DNA of 64,000 nt from Dictyostelium discoideum. Taxonomy: Eukaryota. A program made the position numbers and the translations under genes. Positions 2,846 to 54,186 of this stretch are shown one piece after another (position 1 is the stretch's first letter; each line of letters begins with the position of its first letter). The stretch is taken from the NCBI GenBank assembly GCA_000004695.1, contig CM000152.2, positions 4,800,001 through 4,864,000 of the forward strand. Direction: 5' to 3'. The notes under the pieces were generated by a model that did not search any database, had not been told where the DNA came from, and saw only the letters and a program-made list of their open reading frames with translations.

Positions 2846-3426
2846 GTTGGTGGTGATTTAATCTTTTTATTATCAAATAAAAAAAAGTTCTAAATTTTTG
2901 ATTATTTATTTGTGTTTTTATTGTTTTATTTTATTATATTTTTTTTTATATTATTTTATTTATTGTTTATTTTTTTTTTTCTTTTATTATTTTTTTTTTT
3001 TTAAAAAAAAAAATGAAGTACTACAACATAGTATCTCTCTAAATATACACATAAAAAAATTCTCACCTTTGTCGTACGAAATAAAAAGAGAGAAAAAGGA
3101 AAAAAAAAATAAAAAAATATTTTTTCAGTACACTCCCCTGCGCCTCAATAAAAAATTAAAAAAAATTCATGTGATTGAAAAATTATTGAGGTGAGTTTTT
3201 ACATAATTTTTACATAATTACGTAATTTCAATTTTTTTTTTTTTTTTATTTTATTTTTTATTTTTTTTTTTTTCCCAAATTTTTTTTTTGGAAATAAGCA
3301 CCAATTAACAATAATCAAATATTTGATCAAGATTTATTTCAATTGTTTAATTTTAATTTTTTATTTTAGATTGATTTTATCCACAATTTTATTTTAATTA
3401 TTTTAATTTTTTTTTTTAATTATTAT

Positions 3427-3484
<58 letters not shown>

Positions 3485-3835
3485 TGTAACCAAAAATATT
3501 GTTTAGATTTAAAAATTAAATAAGATTTTTATAATTATAAAAATAGTTTTATGATTTTTTTTATAATAATAAAGTGAAGTTACTGATATGACTTATTTTT
3601 TTTTTATTATTTTTTTCTTAAATTTTTTTTTTTTTTTTTCTGAAAAAAATAATAAAAAAAAGCATTCTATCATTTTTCTCATAAATTGTGTGTTATTAAT
3701 TTTTTAATTTTTTAATTTTTTAATTTTTTAATTAATATTTTTTTTTTTTTTTTTTTTTTTTTTTATTTAATTTAATTTCAATAAATTGAAGTAATAATGT
3801 AAATTATATTTCTTCCTTTTTAATTTTTATTTTTG

Positions 3836-3871
<36 letters not shown>

Positions 3872-3947
3872 TTTTTTTAATCAAATTTTGAAAAATATTA
3901 ATATATTTTCCTTTTTTATTTTAAATAATTTCTTATTATTATTAGTT

Positions 3948-3982
<35 letters not shown>

Positions 3983-4003
3983 AAAAGAAAAAGAAAAAGA
4001 AAA

Positions 4004-4036
<33 letters not shown>

Positions 4037-4046
4037 AATTAATAAA

Positions 4047-5222
4047 ATGGGTAGAGGTGGTCATACATGTTTAAATAATTATTGCCAAAATGAATTAAAA
4101 TTCGAAATTCCAAAAGATGTTACTAAAAAACCACAATTAATTCCACTATCACCAATAAATAAACAAATTTTAAAAAAAATTAAAAATAATAATAAAAAAC
4201 AAAAAAAGATGGAAAAGAAATTAAATCAATTTGAATTTTTAAATATTTTTGAAATTGATAAAAATAATATTTCATTTTCAACAACTGATGATGATGATGA
4301 TGATGATAATAATGAAAAGATTAGTAAATTAAATAATTCAATTAATAATAATAATTATAAAGAAAACAATAGTAATATAATCATTGAAAAAACACCAGAT
4401 TTAATTGAAAATGATGAATTAATAATAGACAATAATGAAAAAGAAAATCAAGAAAAAGAAAAAAAATTAAAGGAGGAGGAGGAGGAAGAGGAAGAAAGAT
4501 TATTTTTAGAATTAGAGAAAGAAAAAGAAATTTTAGAAGATGGAGAATTTAATGAAATTTTTGAATCAATTGGTGATATAAATGAAATTGGAGAAGAGTA
4601 TGAGTATCAATTAACAAATAAAAAGACTTGTTTATATAAAAGAGTGACAAAGGATAATAAGAAACCAAAGGTATCAAAAAGACCAGAAAAAGCCATTGAA
4701 TTATCAAAAGAGGCAAGAAAGAGTTATTGGTTATCTTTCCACTTCGGAAAACAATTGGATACAAGACCAAAAGAAGTTAAGATCAGTCAACTCAGTTTCA
4801 ATGGCACCGGTAAAGAAGATTCTTATGAGGCTCAATTACGTAAAGCTTTATCATTAAGTAAATCTGAATACGATAGACAAGTTAAAAAGGATATTACACC
4901 ATTATCACAACTTCAAATTAATGATATACTCAATAGAGAGTTAACACCAGAAGATTATGAATTATTACTCTTATTAGATGAAAATATTAAACCAAAAACT
5001 GTAGATGAAGATGATATCAATAAATTATTAACAGTGAAATTTGATACTCAACTCTTGCAACAATTCTCAACCTGTATGATTTGTTTATCTGATTTCGATC
5101 TTGGTGAATCAATCATTAAATTACCATGCTCTCACATTTTCCATATTAATTGTATTTCAAATTGGTTATCAAATGCTTCTACAAAATGTCCAATTGATAA
5201 TATTCCTATTGTAAATAATTAA
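4047..5222 (+). CDS. RING-H2 E3 ubiquitin ligase with a ubiquitin-interacting motif, 391 aa, single exon.
   Basis: C-terminal CMICLSDFDLGESIIKLPCSHIFHINCISNWLSNASTKCPI has C-x2-C-x13-C-x-H-x2-H-x2-C-x10-C-P spacing (RING-H2). EDSYEAQLRKALSLSKSE matches the UIM consensus. Acidic and N-rich low-complexity N-terminus. Confidence 0.75.
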   Translation: MGRGGHTCLNNYCQNELKFEIPKDVTKKPQLIPLSPINKQILKKIKNNNKKQKKMEKKLNQFEFLNIFEIDKNNISFSTTDDDDDDDNNEKISKLNNSINNNNYKENNSNIIIEKTPDLIENDELIIDNNEKENQEKEKKLKEEEEEEEERLFLELEKEKEILEDGEFNEIFESIGDINEIGEEYEYQLTNKKTCLYKRVTKDNKKPKVSKRPEKAIELSKEARKSYWLSFHFGKQLDTRPKEVKISQLSFNGTGKEDSYEAQLRKALSLSKSEYDRQVKKDITPLSQLQINDILNRELTPEDYELLLLLDENIKPKTVDEDDINKLLTVKFDTQLLQQFSTCMICLSDFDLGESIIKLPCSHIFHINCISNWLSNASTKCPIDNIPIVNN

Positions 5223-6126
5223 TGTAATAATTACCCATTTAATTTTAAATAAAATTTTTTATGTATAATAACTATAATAGTCCAATTCTCTTTTTTTTTT
5301 TTTTTTTAATTTTAATCTTGGTTATTTTTTTTTTTTTAATTTGTTATATTGATAATTATTAATTTCGAAACAAATAATTATTAATCAAAGTATCAATTAA
5401 TGATAATAATAATTTTAACCAAATAAAATGGAAATTATATTTTTAAAATAATAAAAAGGTAAAAGAAAATTTATTTAATTTTTTTATTTATTTTTTATTA
5501 ATTTATTATCATTACAAATTAAAAATCTCAAAAAAAAGTTTAAAAAAACTCATACTAATATAAATAAATATTCATTTTAATTATTAAGAGTATTTTATTT
5601 TTATTTTCTTTTTTTGCCTTTATCTAAACAAAAAATGAATTACAAATAATTAAATTCTTAAAATAATTTTTGACTCAAAAACAGATGGTTTCATTAATTT
5701 TTTTTATATTTTATATTGTTTTGTGTATTTTTGATTGTTCTATTTTTATAAACTTAATTCATTTTAAAAAATAAATAAAATTATATATCATTGTTTTAAA
5801 AAAAAATAAAAAAAAACGAAAAAATGAATTTTTTTTTTAATTATAATTTAAGTTTTTTAGTTTTGTTTAACCATTTTTATATTTATAATAATAAAATAAA
5901 ACAAAAATAAAAAAAAAATAAAAAAAAAAAAAATACAAAAGTGGTTTTAATAATAAAATTAGAAATTGTTAGAATGATTTTTTCAGATTAAAATTGAATT
6001 TGGCGCTTTTTTCTCAAAACACTTTTTTTTTTTTTTTCACACAAAAAAAAGAAAAAAAAAAAAAATTGTAAATTATTTTTTATTTTTCATCTTTTATTAA
6101 AGGTTGATAATAAATTTAATAAATAA

Positions 6127-6160
<34 letters not shown>

Positions 6161-9100
6161 ATGCCAAGACTAAAACTACCAAAATCATTCAAAGATGAAT
6201 TGGAGTCTGAAAAAACAACAACAACGAGTTCAAGAAAGAAAGCACCAGTTGTAGATCCAAAACAAACTTTGATGAGTAGTTTTTTTACACCAGTTTCAAA
6301 GTCTACAGATACAAAAGAAATAAATAATAAAGAAGATAAAGATGAAGATAAAGATAAAGATAAAGATAATAAAAAAACTAAAAAAAGTAAAGATACAAGT
6401 GATAATGAAGATATGGTTGATGATAATAATAAACAACAAAAAGAAAAGAAAGCAACACCAAATAAATCAAATTCACCTCAATCACCACAAACTTCAAAAT
6501 CACCTTTAACAAGAAGAAGTAGTGCTAATGGAAATAGTGATTCAAAAATAGATAATAAAGAAAAAGAAAAAGAAAAAGAGAAAGAAAAAGAAAAAGATAA
6601 AAGTACACCAACAAAAACAACAAGTTCAAGAGTCAAAAAAGATACAGAAGTTTCTAAATCTATACCACCAAAATTATCAAAACAAACTAAAAAAAAACAA
6701 ATATCTAGTGATAATGATATTTATGATGATGAAAAAGATTCAGAAGAAGAGGATTTAGAAGATGATCATGATGATGAAGAGGAAAAGGTTGTAGTAAAGA
6801 AACCATCAAAACCAACATCAAAATCAATTACAGCAAAACCAGCATCAACAAAAGCAACAACAACAACAACAACAACTACAACAACAACTTCAACAGGTAG
6901 AACAAGAGTCAATAGAGTGAATTTAGATATTTCATTTTCATCTGAAAGTGAGGAAGATGAAAAACCAAAGAAAAAGATTATTGGTAAAAAAAGAAAGAAG
7001 AAAGATGATAGTGATTTTGATTCTGAATCAGAATCAGATACAATCTCTGAAGCATCTGAAGTTGAACCTGAATCAGAGGAAGATTTAGATTCATTTAAAT
7101 TTAACTCAAAAAAGAAAAATAATAATAAAAATAACAATAATAAAAAGAAAAATGACGAATATGAAGATGAAGAAGAAGATGAAGATGATGAATTATTCAA
7201 AGATATTGAAATGAAAGATAAACCAGAAGAGGAAGAAAAAGAAGAAGAAGGTGACCCAATTGTTATCGGATCAGGTCGTGTTGTATTACCAAAAGGTACA
7301 CCTGATTTCCAACCAGATCCAAAAGCAGGTAAAAAACTATTAAAAGCTCATTTGGAAATTCAATCAAAAGAGGAAGCAAAGAGATTACAACAAGCAAATG
7401 GTGGTGGTGGTGACGGTGGTGGTGGTCAAATAAAGGGTAGTGATGATGAAGATGAGGAAGTTAAAAAACCAACAAAAGGTGGATCAAAAGCATCAGCGAA
7501 AAAGAAAGGACCAGCATATACACCATTGGAACAACAATATATTGCAATTAAAAAAGAGAATCCAGATACGGTGTTGATGGTTGAATGTGGTTATAAATAT
7601 AAATTCTTTGGAGAAGATGCAGAGGTTGCGAATAAAGTATTAAATATTTACTCATACGTAGCAAAGAATTTCTTAAATTGTAGCATACCAACACAACGTC
7701 TTTTCTTTCACCTTAGAAGATTAGTTATGGCAGGTTATAAAGTTGGTATTGTTGAGCAAACTGAAACTGCAGCATTGAAAGCAATTAGTTCATCAAAATC
7801 ACAACCATTTGAAAGAAAATTAACAAGAGTATACACATCGTCAACATTTATCGATGACGATATCGATGATCAACTTACAAGTTCGTCACCACAATTTTTA
7901 GTATCATTTTATGAAAGCACACCAAAGAATAAGAACGATGATGTGATTAAAAAACAAAGGGATAACGAAGAGGAGGGAATCGATAGCAGTAATGAATCAT
8001 CAACTTCAACTATATCATTTGTTGCAGTTAGTGTAAAAACTGGTGAAATTATCTATGATACATTTAAAGATAATGTAATGAGAAGTCAATTGGAAACTAT
8101 TTTAACTCATATAAAACCAAGTGAAATTTTAATACCACCAACAACAACAACAGTGAATAAACAAAAAGTTAATAATGGAATTGGTACCAATCATTATTAT
8201 TTTTCAAATCTTACAAGTAAATGTTTAAAAACTTACACTAAATCAACCAATGTTAGAACTCAAGCAATGGATAGTCAACTTTATGATTACGAGTATTCCT
8301 TGGGTAAATTAATCGATTTCTATGAAGATGAGTCCAATAATAATAATAATAACAACAACTGTGAGGATGTATTGAAATTTGTAAAATCAACATTAAATAA
8401 GGAGCAAATCATTTGTTTGGGTATATTATTAAGTTATTTGAATGAGTTCATTCATTTTGGTAGTATTTTAAAGGTGGAATCAAATTTCAAAGCATTTAGA
8501 GTCTCAAATCATTTAGTGTTACCACATTCAACCATTGTAAATTTAGAGTTATTAGTTAATGAATCAGATAACAAGGAGAAAGGATCATTGATTTGGTTAA
8601 TGAATCGTACAAGTACATTCTCTGGTAGTAGAATGTTTATCAATTGGATTTGTAAACCTTTGAATCAATTAGAGTTAATTAAAGAAAGACAAGATGCAGT
8701 TGAAGAATTAGTAAATGGTATAAAAACAAATTCACCACCAATTGTTTCAATCATTTCTTTATTCAAATCACATATTCCAGATTTACAACGTAATTTATCA
8801 CGTATCTATTATAAAGTTCAATGTACACCAAAAGAATTTTTAAATACAATGACTTCATTACAACGTATTGTTGAATTATTTAAAGAAATCAATAATAATA
8901 ATAGTAGTTATAAATTTAATTCAACTTTATTAAATTCAATATTTAAATTACAAAATGATAATAAAGATGGTGACAGTGATAGTTTTGATTATATTGGTGG
9001 TGAAGATAAATTATCAAAAAGAATTAAATACTTTTTATCAAATATAAATAAAGAAACTGCAAAAGAGTATGGAACTGTTGGTTGTGATAAATCAAATCTT

Positions 9101-51880: not shown

Positions 51881-52576
51881 TGTTGTGATGGTAATAAGAA
51901 TACTTGAAATATATATATAGATTTATTTTTTTAATTTTTTTTTTTGTAAAAACAAAAACAAAAAAAAAATAAAAAAAAATAAAAAAAAAAAAATAAAAAA
52001 AAAAAAAATAAAAAAAAAAAAAATAAAAACTTTGGGCTAGATATTTTCAAATTCTTAAAATAATCAGTTTAATTTTAAGTAGATTTTTTCTTCAAAAGAA
52101 AAGTGACTTTTAATCTGCCTGTAACCAAAAAAAAAAAAACCACAATAAAAAAAATTTTAATAAAGAAATAATATAAAAAATAAAAAAAAAATAATATAAA
52201 AATAAAAAAAATATTATTTTTTAATAAAAAAATAAAAAAAATAAAACTAAATAATAAAAATAATAATAAAAAAAGTAAAAGAAAAGTAATAAAAAAATAA
52301 TGAAAATAAAATAAAACAAAAAAAAAAAAAAAAAAAATAAAAGTAATAATAAAAAAAAGTACTTAAAATAAAAATAATAATAAAAATATTTGAAAAACAC
52401 AAAAAAATGTTGATTTGTTTAAATCCCGATTAATTTGAAATCAATTTTTATCAAATTCTCAAAAAAAAAAAAATTCTCAAAAAAAAAAAATCTTTTTTGG
52501 TCATTTTTTTTTTTTAATATTCCAACATCGTTTTTTTATTTATCAATTTAAATTTATCAATTTAAATTTATCTAAA

Positions 52577-52692
52577 ATGTTAGTTAAAGTATCAATTCAC
52601 GGACAAGAGTATGATTTAGAAGTTCAACCAACTGATAAAATTCAAGAAATCAAATCAAAAATTAATGAACTAAATGTAATTTTTAATTTTTG

Positions 52693-52785: not shown

Positions 52786-52987
52786 CTCAAAAAAGGGAAC
52801 ACCTGTTGAACAAATCCATCCATATATTGCAGGACATGCAATGAAAGATGGTACTACAATTTCAGATTATCCTCAAATTGTAGAAGGATCAAAAATTCAA
52901 GTTAGAGTCATACTCAAATCACAATCTGACAATTCTGAAAAATCAGAAAAATCAGGAAAATCTGAAAAGGATTGTATTTTAATGTAA
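52577..52987 (+). CDS. Membrane-anchored ubiquitin-fold protein (MUB / UBL3-like) with a C-terminal CaaX box. Exons 52577..52675 and 52796..52987.
   Basis: MLVKVSIHGQEYDLEVQPTDKIQEIKSKINELN | GTPVEQIHPYIAGHAMKDGTTISDYPQIVEGSKIQVRVILKSQSDNSEKSEKSGKSEKDCILM*. This is a ubiquitin-like beta-grasp (compare [31 protein letters not shown]...) ending in CILM. That is a Cys-aliphatic-aliphatic-X prenylation motif, as in UBL3 (CVIL) and plant MUBs. GTAATT donor and (T)nCTCAAAAAAG acceptor, phase 0. Confidence 0.65.
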
Positions 52988-53136
52988 ATCAAATAAATAG
53001 AAGAAAAAAACAAAAATAAAATAAAATAAAATAAAATAAAATAAAATAAAATAAAATAAAATAAAAATAAACTACCCCCTTTTAATTTTGGTTTTTACAA
53101 ATTATATTTTTTTTTATTTATTTAATTATTTTATAA

Positions 53137-54186
53137 TTAAAAATCTTTTGAATTTTTAATTAGAGCTCTTCTTGCTAATTCTAAAGAACCAATTGAACCA
53201 GCATGAGAAGCAAAAGGTGATTGAACAATATATTGATCAATGAAATCATTTGTTAAATATTTTGATTTGATATAACCATTTAAAATTTTGATAGTTTCAG
53301 TACGAATGATTGGATAAAGAATTGAACGATTTAAAACACCACCACCTAAAACAATGACTTGAGGTGATAATAAACAAGTGATATTTGCACATAATTGAGC
53401 TAAATAATTACCAATGATTAACCAAACTGGATGATCATCATTAATCTCTGATAGTTTATCAGCATTGATACCTAAACGTTTTGAAATTGCACCTGTGCTT
53501 ACTAAACCTTCGATACAATTACCATGGAATGGACAAGTACCTTGAAAATCTTTATCACCATCTTGAATTTTACAAAAACTATGACCACCCTCTGGATGAA
53601 CCAGACCATGAATACAACTACCATTAACTACACAACCAACACCAACACCTGTACCAACGGTAATATAAGCACATGATGTAATCTCACCCCTTTTATGAAG
53701 TCCATGAAATGTCTCTGATATTGCTGCACCATTTACATCTGTATCAAATCCTTTTGGACATTTATAATCATCAAACCAACCTAATATATTTGTTTGTCCC
53801 CAATTTGGTTTTGGTGTTGTTGTAATGTATCCATAGGTTTCACTACTCTCATCTAAATCAATTGGTCCAAATGATGCAATACCAATAGCACCAATATTAT
53901 TACCACCTTTATTCTTTACCCATTCTAATACTTTATTTTTAGTTTCCTCAACACTCGTTGTTGGTATTGATGTTCTTTCTATAACATTTGATGGTTTATT
54001 AATTGCAATTGATAAACAAATTGATGTACCTCTATTTATTTATTTGTTTATTTTTATTTTAATAATATAAATATTTATATACATATATATATATATATGT
54101 TACTAGTTTTTAATATGTATTAAAAATTTTAATTTTATTACATACCCTGCTTCCACACCAAGAAATTTTTGTTCATTTTTAATCAT
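53137..54186 (-). CDS. ROK-family sugar kinase (fructokinase/mannokinase Mak-like). Exons 54146..54186 and 53137..54031.
   Basis: MIKNEQKFLGVEAG | GTSICLSIAINKPSNVIERTS...GIASFGPIDLDESSETYGYITTTPKPNWGQTNILG...AYITVGTGVGVGCVVNGSCIHGLVHPEGGHSFCK...CPFHGNCIEGLVSTGAISKRLG... This has the ROK glycine-rich ATP motif and the Zn-binding H-x2-H...C-x-H-G-x-C-x-E signature. GTATGT donor, AATAG acceptor, phase 2+1. Confidence 0.8.

Follow-up and report, generated by a model that had tools for sequence, protein, structure and literature searches.

Our results indicate with considerable confidence that DDB_G0281705 of Dictyostelium discoideum is a conventional nuclear gene, of expressed appearance, for a cytosolic, ATP-dependent ROK kinase of the YdhR/ScrK subtype, most probably a fructose kinase, and that it belongs to a eukaryote-wide clade and has been inherited vertically. 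Such inheritance, introns included, would reach back at least to the last common ancestor of Dictyostelia and Acanthamoeba/Balamuthia, and the ultimate ancestry of the clade would probably be bacterial. The first-pass annotation of the window (the whole stretch of 64,000 nucleotides analysed here) regarded the gene as a good candidate for an old horizontal transfer in an amoebozoan context. In its lineage-specific form, that proposal is contradicted by the tree, by an insertion that marks the clade, and by introns shared with other amoebae.

The gene occupies 53137..54186 of the minus strand and consists of two exons separated by a single GT..AG intron; its product is a ROK sugar kinase of 311 amino acids.

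54186..54146 (-), exon 1, 41 nt, with the ATG at 54186; Met1 to Ala13 plus two bases of the Gly14 codon
54145..54032 (-), intron, 114 nt, GTATGT...ATAG, 7.9% G+C, phase 2, inside the Gly14 codon
54031..53137 (-), exon 2, 895 nt, closed by the TAA at 53137..53139; from the third base of the Gly14 codon to Phe311

The intron interrupts the first glycine (Gly14) of the phosphate-binding motif E-A-G-G-T. When read unspliced, the frame stops 17 codons past the exon-intron junction; there is another stop in frame 8 codons ahead of the ATG, and the start codon has an A-rich context. The spliced product is exactly that of D. discoideum AX4 DDB_G0281705 (XP_640592.1; UniProt Q54TJ9, under the UniProt name 'fructokinase'), and the gene at 53137..54186 is an already annotated one. 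The gene model and coordinates proposed earlier were exact, as was the placing of a spliceosomal intron inside the ATP motif, and the 311-residue product contains all the motifs that had been quoted: VEAGGTS (residues 11-17), HGLVHPEGGH (155-164) and CPFHGNCIEG (180-189). A literature search on DDB_G0281705, Q54TJ9 and Dictyostelium discoideum fructokinase returned no paper on the gene and no assay, transcript or mutant report.

The product matches the Pfam ROK model (PF00480) with an E value of 1.2e-44 and a score of 153.5 bits, well over the cut-off of 22.9, and with residues 9-302 aligning to positions 2-293 of the 294 in the model. Among the NCBIfam models the top one, and the best curated family, was fructokinase ScrK of the Streptococcus/Lactococcus type (NF045550; 224.4 bits, E 2e-66, residues 7-302 against 4-289 of 293), yet this score lies below the curated equivalog cut-off of 400. 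Because 224 bits do not reach that value, the product is not callable as ScrK under NCBI's rule. The NCBIfam models for glucokinase, NagK, NanK, allose kinase and the E. coli Mak-type enzyme gave just 20-68 bits. The closest solved structures are three entries for the Bacillus subtilis fructokinase YdhR (GmuE; PDB 1XC3, 3LM9 and 3OHR), which align over the full length with E 1.6e-64 (3ohr/1xc3), the next ROK protein following at 6e-09. An AlphaFold2 model of the Dictyostelium protein, computed from a 20-sequence alignment, had a mean pLDDT of 92.2; Foldseek matched it to 1xc3/3lm9 with TM 0.88/0.93 and an rmsd of 2.2 A, and to the remaining ROK kinases and repressors with TM of only ~0.7. The Pfam ROK model, the ScrK model and the YdhR structure thus agree with the initial description of a ROK sugar kinase of bacterial fructokinase type. 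The narrower label of a bacterial Mak/YdhR fructokinase holds in its YdhR/ScrK part and fails in its Mak part: the E. coli Mak-type fructokinase/mannokinase (NF007108) was rejected at 26.4 bits against a cut-off of 443.

YdhR and the Dictyostelium protein share the E-A-G-G-T, T-D-V-N and H-P-E-x-G-H motifs and the C-P-x-H-G-x-C zinc site. On the other hand, YdhR is bacterial, its gene is intron-less, and it is without the three-residue insertion that precedes Trp217 in the Dictyostelium protein. The B. subtilis gene sits in a glucomannan-utilisation operon, whereas the Dictyostelium gene is solitary among unrelated eukaryotic genes. The textbook eukaryotic ROK protein is the kinase domain of animal GNE (N-acetylmannosamine kinase), which has the same ROK fold and zinc site but, at ~21 bits and ~18% identity, represents another subfamily with another substrate.

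Roles of individual residues were transferred by alignment from the NagK of Plesiomonas, in which the residues had been tested by mutagenesis (PMC10031466), including that of D105 as the catalytic base. The aligned residues are given first, followed by the two motifs with their positions in the window.

E12, aligned to NagK D6, metal ligand
T16, aligned to NagK T10, phosphate contact
T141, aligned to NagK T132, phosphate contact
T111, aligned to NagK N104, sugar binding
D112, aligned to NagK D105, predicted catalytic base
53731..53745 (-), D110-T-D112-V-N114 motif, which contains the predicted catalytic base Asp112
53506..53610 (-), HPEGGH sugar-binding motif and predicted structural zinc site; residues 155-189, with His164, Cys180, His183 and Cys186

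Since the alignment to NagK ends at residue 160, E161 and H164 are putative counterparts of NagK E154 and H157, suggested by the shared motif. Across 201 family sequences T111, D112 and N114, like E12, T16, T141, E161, H164 and the other zinc ligands, show little or no variation, D112 being found in 201/201. The E12-A-G-G-T16 phosphate loop is kept in 101 of the 108 eukaryotic and in all 93 bacterial-side sequences, and the four zinc ligands are 100% conserved in the latter and 94-99% in the eukaryotic clade. Judged from these alignments, the ATP motif, the catalytic Asp and the predicted zinc site of the DDB_G0281705 product are intact. According to this assignment, the ATP phosphates and Mg2+ would be held at the E-A-G-G-T loop and Thr141, and the sugar would be bound by Glu161 and His164 of HPEGGH together with Thr111 and Asp112. 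Asp112 would deprotonate the 6-OH of the sugar, and a structural zinc on His164, Cys180, His183 and Cys186 would shape the sugar site.

By analogy with its characterised relatives, the enzyme most probably phosphorylates fructose to fructose 6-phosphate. Fructokinase is the likely function because YdhR, the nearest structure, is a fructokinase and a 47%-identical enzyme of Phytophthora nicotianae is published as specific for fructose. YdhR is listed, in a table of PMC4412284, as a ROK fructokinase with fructose as the substrate and a Km of 0.38 mM. The P. nicotianae protein, FKI (PPTG_18886), is a 294-aa ROK-domain protein with an ExGxT motif; the recombinant enzyme, made in E. coli, phosphorylates fructose and not glucose, and is a specialised fructokinase (PMC8879444). 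Its identity to the DDB_G0281705 product is 47% over 302 residues, it belongs to the cluster represented by P0050 within the same eukaryotic clade, and it carries the same insertion. It differs in its origin from an oomycete, and the oomycete relative that was mapped (Saprolegnia only) has introns elsewhere.

That mannose, glucose or another hexose, rather than fructose, is the main physiological substrate seems improbable to us, given that the two nearest characterised relatives (YdhR and FKI) are reported as fructokinases, FKI without use of glucose, that scores with the models for glucokinase, NagK, NanK and allose kinase are as low as stated above, and that the residues of the sugar site do not vary within the family. 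This alternative draws on the failure to reach the ScrK equivalog cut-off, on the fact that the specificity of DDB_G0281705 is deduced from its relatives, and on the Lactococcus and Streptococcus ROK fructokinases, which phosphorylate mannose too (PMC4412284). Because some bacterial ROK fructokinases also use mannose, the preference for fructose is put forward here as the expected one, and some mannokinase activity of DDB_G0281705 is possible by the same analogy.

How a kinase of this type came to reside in an amoeba was a separate question. It could be envisaged that a bacterial gene was transferred specifically into dictyostelids or Amoebozoa, and that adjustment to the composition of the host and intron gain followed. 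The mostly prokaryotic occurrence of the ROK family speaks for this scenario, as does the fact that the nearest solved structure and the nearest curated family models are bacterial. We consider it highly improbable in view of the distribution, the phylogeny, the introns and the composition of the gene.

In a homology search with the DDB_G0281705 product, eukaryotes rank first among the best 120 matches. Homologs at 64-74% identity come from D. purpureum, Heterostelium, Polysphondylium, Acytostelium, Tieghemostelium and Synstelium, so that the orthologs in other dictyostelids, which the first-pass annotation had proposed to look for, are present in all those sampled. Further amoebozoan homologs were found in Ceratiomyxa, Clastostelium, Balamuthia, Gocevia, Mastigamoeba and Acanthamoeba, and homologs outside Amoebozoa in oomycetes, Barthelona, Amoebidium, Eucheuma, Gefionella, Eutreptiella, Epipyxis and Pygsuia. 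The lineages represented are Amoebozoa, Ichthyosporea, Breviatea, Rhodophyta, oomycetes, a chrysophyte, a euglenid, Barthelona and a malawimonad. The top named bacteria among the same best 120 matches (Paenibacillus) are 46-47% identical to the Dictyostelium protein, and in a scan of one genome per bacterial or archaeal species bacterial homologs reached 39-47%. These values are not far under the 44-57% of non-dictyostelid eukaryotes, which is in favour of a lineage-specific transfer. Against it stands a search seeded with the Amoebidium protein: none of its best 120 matches was source-named as bacterial. This search brought in Creolimax, Ichthyophonus, Galdieria, Gracilaria, Agarophyton, Pythium oligandrum and a bdelloid rotifer, with genome-based members among the ichthyosporeans and red algae. 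With the exception of that one rotifer, fungi, land plants and animals were absent from the two lists of best 120 matches.

Trees were constructed by distance-based neighbour joining with two distances (Kimura and the BLOSUM-based Scoredist) and 100 bootstraps each, from 200 sequences comprising homology-search matches and 80 bacterial ORFs from genome-scan loci, over 285 well-occupied columns. The 29 named eukaryotic sequences all fell, together with 79 environmental ones, into one group, which in the absence of outgroups excluded every one of the 82 named bacterial sequences at bootstrap 100. The same group received bootstrap 91 after addition of YdhR and two distant ROK outgroups, and 97 with the BLOSUM-based distance, 82-83 named bacterial sequences being excluded across trees. 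Its named eukaryotes cover at least seven major lineages. For two environmental members located on long contigs, a eukaryotic source is shown by the neighbouring genes, which encode VPS13, NAC and a FYVE protein on the first contig, and ribophorin II, a proteasome ATPase and PIGA on the second. A position inside a broadly eukaryotic clade (bootstrap 91-100) is what the first-pass annotation itself had set against its proposal, and the grouping of named eukaryotes without any named bacterium argues against a transfer confined to dictyostelids or Amoebozoa. The other outcome that it had set against transfer, a best match to eukaryotic ROK kinases of the N-acetylglucosamine type, was not obtained: GlcNAc/ManNAc-type ROK kinases are not the nearest relatives, human GNE kinase scoring ~21 bits.

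Independently of the trees, the clade is also marked by a difference in length. Arg199 and Trp217 have 17 residues between them in 105/108 sequences of the eukaryotic clade, and 14 in 92/93 bacterial-side sequences, the remaining one having 13. In the aligned sequences, a three-residue insertion (105/108 versus 0/93) is therefore a marker of the eukaryotic clade, and its lack from every bacterial-side sequence again contradicts a lineage-specific import from bacteria.

53434..53442 (-), approximate site of the three-residue insertion; Asn211-Asp213, where the gap versus YdhR falls

Exon structures were solved exactly from genomic loci, except that the Acanthamoeba junctions were determined by visual inspection of the tblastn alignment and of the raw sequence. 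The following introns recur across Amoebozoa (D. purpureum, L081; Heterostelium, L082; Balamuthia, L084; Acanthamoeba, L085).

First Gly of G-G-T, phase 2: D. discoideum, D. purpureum, Heterostelium, Balamuthia and Acanthamoeba
Codon after H-P-E-x-G-H-x, phase 2: D. purpureum, Heterostelium, Balamuthia and Acanthamoeba
Glu codon near residue 272-276, phase 1: Heterostelium and Balamuthia, with a consistent acceptor in Acanthamoeba
Thr codon before Y-G-Y, phase 2: Balamuthia and Acanthamoeba

The junctions of the first Acanthamoeba intron read GCTGG|GTTCGT...CAG|GGGCACG. Three intron positions, with their phases, are common to dictyostelids and Balamuthia/Acanthamoeba. Because both its position and its phase are shared, the G-G-T intron dates to the common ancestor of Dictyostelia and Discosea amoebae, and, as relatives retain the others, D. 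discoideum has lost two of the three ancestral introns and kept one. Tieghemostelium has lost all three. The intron had been described earlier as acquired; its presence in Dictyostelium, Heterostelium, Balamuthia and Acanthamoeba indicates that it is not a recent gain, and positions held in common with Discosea amoebae are difficult to reconcile with a transfer specific to one lineage.

Neither composition nor genomic context sets the gene apart. Its coding sequence has a G+C content of 31.4% and GC3 of 9.6%, and the window has 23.4% G+C. Relative synonymous codon usage correlates with that of ten long ORFs of the window at r = 0.947, inside the range of these ORFs among themselves (0.89-0.99). 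The earlier view of a fully host-like composition is in agreement with these values, and the lack of any anomaly counts against a lineage-specific transfer. The neighbours are all ordinary eukaryotic genes, for DAP3 mitoribosomal, RGG/FoP-like, ankyrin-repeat and ubiquitin-like CaaX proteins. In conclusion, the gene does not nest apart from other eukaryotes and is not restricted to one lineage, it has neither atypical composition nor bacterial neighbours, and its introns are ancient. This bacterial-looking amoeba gene is a member of an old eukaryote-wide clade and hence does not qualify as a transfer into Dictyostelium or Amoebozoa. The useful outcome is thus a negative one, namely that an apparent bacterial import is not a recent import.

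A ribosomal protein L19e gene (rpl19) follows the ROK gene, in convergent orientation, in D. purpureum (L081, 4340..5023) and Tieghemostelium (L083, 4569..5321). Neither Heterostelium (L082) nor the D. discoideum window shows this adjacency, and local synteny does not extend to them. In D. discoideum the convergent position is occupied by a small two-exon gene (~52571..52670 and ~52790..52987, plus strand), the product of which is ubiquitin-like (MLVKVSIHGQEYDLEVQPTDKIQEIKSKINELN ... KIQVRVIL ...) and ends in the CaaX box CILM. These features suggest a ubiquitin-fold protein that is prenylated and anchored in a membrane; a Pfam search with its second exon alone gave no match. The spacer of ~150 nt between the two convergent 3' ends contains an (AAATA)n pentanucleotide tandem repeat at 53019..53066.

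The origin of the clade as a whole is a different problem. A bacterial origin through a single, very ancient event close to the base of the eukaryotes is plausible, the ROK family being mainly prokaryotic and the clade lying near bacterial YdhR/ScrK sequences. Eukaryotes nested within bacteria in 91/100 replicates with the Kimura distance and in 60/100 with Scoredist, and rooting was therefore unstable; the outgroups were two distant ROK kinases, partial PDB sequences rebuilt from HMMER alignments. In the Kimura tree the sister of eukaryotes consists of Chloroflexota/Planctomycetota/Acidobacteriota genomes, with only 58% support. Because rooting is unstable between distance measures, no bacterial donor is named.

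We tentatively suggest that a YdhR-type ROK fructokinase with the three-residue insertion already existed in the last eukaryotic common ancestor, or entered once from bacteria just before the eukaryotic radiation, and was repeatedly lost later, for example in animals, fungi and land plants; such a history is quite conceivable, if short of probable. If true, it would mean that an ancestral eukaryotic hexose-kinase lineage, hitherto unrecognised, existed beside hexokinase. Another explanation, also possible but which we regard with some doubt, would retain the single bacterial origin and attribute the patchy eukaryotic spread mainly to later eukaryote-to-eukaryote transfers instead of descent with many losses. 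The lack of fungi, land plants and animals other than one bdelloid rotifer in the two lists of best 120 matches would be accounted for in this way. Branching inside the eukaryotic clade is poorly supported and departs from organismal relationships, Barthelona joining the oomycete side and Amoebidium the red algae, which would fit transfers between eukaryotes; yet poor internal resolution is expected for a protein of 300 residues. Intron positions are a two-sided argument as well. The Saprolegnia gene has five introns, none at amoebozoan positions, a pattern favouring transfer, whereas introns are conserved across Amoebozoa, which favours descent. The Barthelona gene has no introns. Dictyostelia are monophyletic (bootstrap 99-100) and join other Eumycetozoa near Balamuthia/Acanthamoeba, albeit with weak support, which counts against such transfers; the occurrence of the gene in three ichthyosporeans and several red algae suggests vertical descent at the level of lineages. 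Amoebozoa do not form one group in the trees, Mastigamoeba standing apart with weak support.

Much about this enzyme is already known: the gene is annotated as a fructokinase, the family, fold and mechanism are textbook matter, and a Phytophthora member of the clade has been assayed. On the other hand, our literature search found no paper describing the eukaryote-wide ROK fructokinase clade as a whole. A recent review on glucose kinases deals, in the passages covered here, with ROK fructokinases only as bacterial enzymes (PMC12696579), and for this reason the eukaryote-wide extent of the clade may be under-appreciated, yet it is unsurprising. The insertion and the introns shared by Amoebozoa are simple markers that could help to tell true eukaryotic copies from bacterial contamination in protist assemblies. 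The fructokinase of Entamoeba histolytica was considered as a precedent for transfer into Amoebozoa, since a bacterial origin has been proposed for it and it is a published candidate for lateral transfer (PMC4412284). It is amoebozoan and shares the activity EC 2.7.1.4, but it was rejected as a precedent because it belongs to the ribokinase/PfkB family and not to ROK, and thus is a non-homologous, independent case.

Several entries encountered among the homologs deserve a comment. The rotifer protein (Didymodactylos carnosus, P0237), the sole animal among the matches listed, is 48% identical to the Amoebidium protein and could be a genuine acquisition or contamination. Red-algal and related members (Eucheuma P0094, 432 aa; P0072, 354 aa; many of 340-450 aa) have N-terminal extensions of 40-140 residues, missing from amoebozoan and oomycete members, which may be organelle-targeting peptides. 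The member from Gracilaria domingensis (P0213) is labelled 'Rho-associated protein kinase' in its source record, evidently an annotation error in which the family name ROK was misread as the kinase ROCK/ROK. In two oomycete-like entries of 510-519 aa (P0049 and P0052) the ROK domain is joined to a Methyltransf_16/METTL21D-like domain, and a P. ramorum METTL21D entry (P0169) falls within the same 90% cluster (P0068). These are probably adjacent genes merged by gene prediction and not true fusions. In the compact genome of Barthelona sp. PCE (L086), a gene for a PfkB-family sugar kinase (5334..6320) lies two genes from the ROK fructokinase. Finally, the deposited ROK model of Acanthamoeba castellanii (P0110; KB008136.1, L085, gene at 3001..5006) reads CPFHGGLRRGTRGQSCVGQAVRRGADGSVGRREEW in a region where all relatives have CPFHG.C.EG...R......L....D..P.W, and the middle of this model is probably mis-spliced or frame-shifted.
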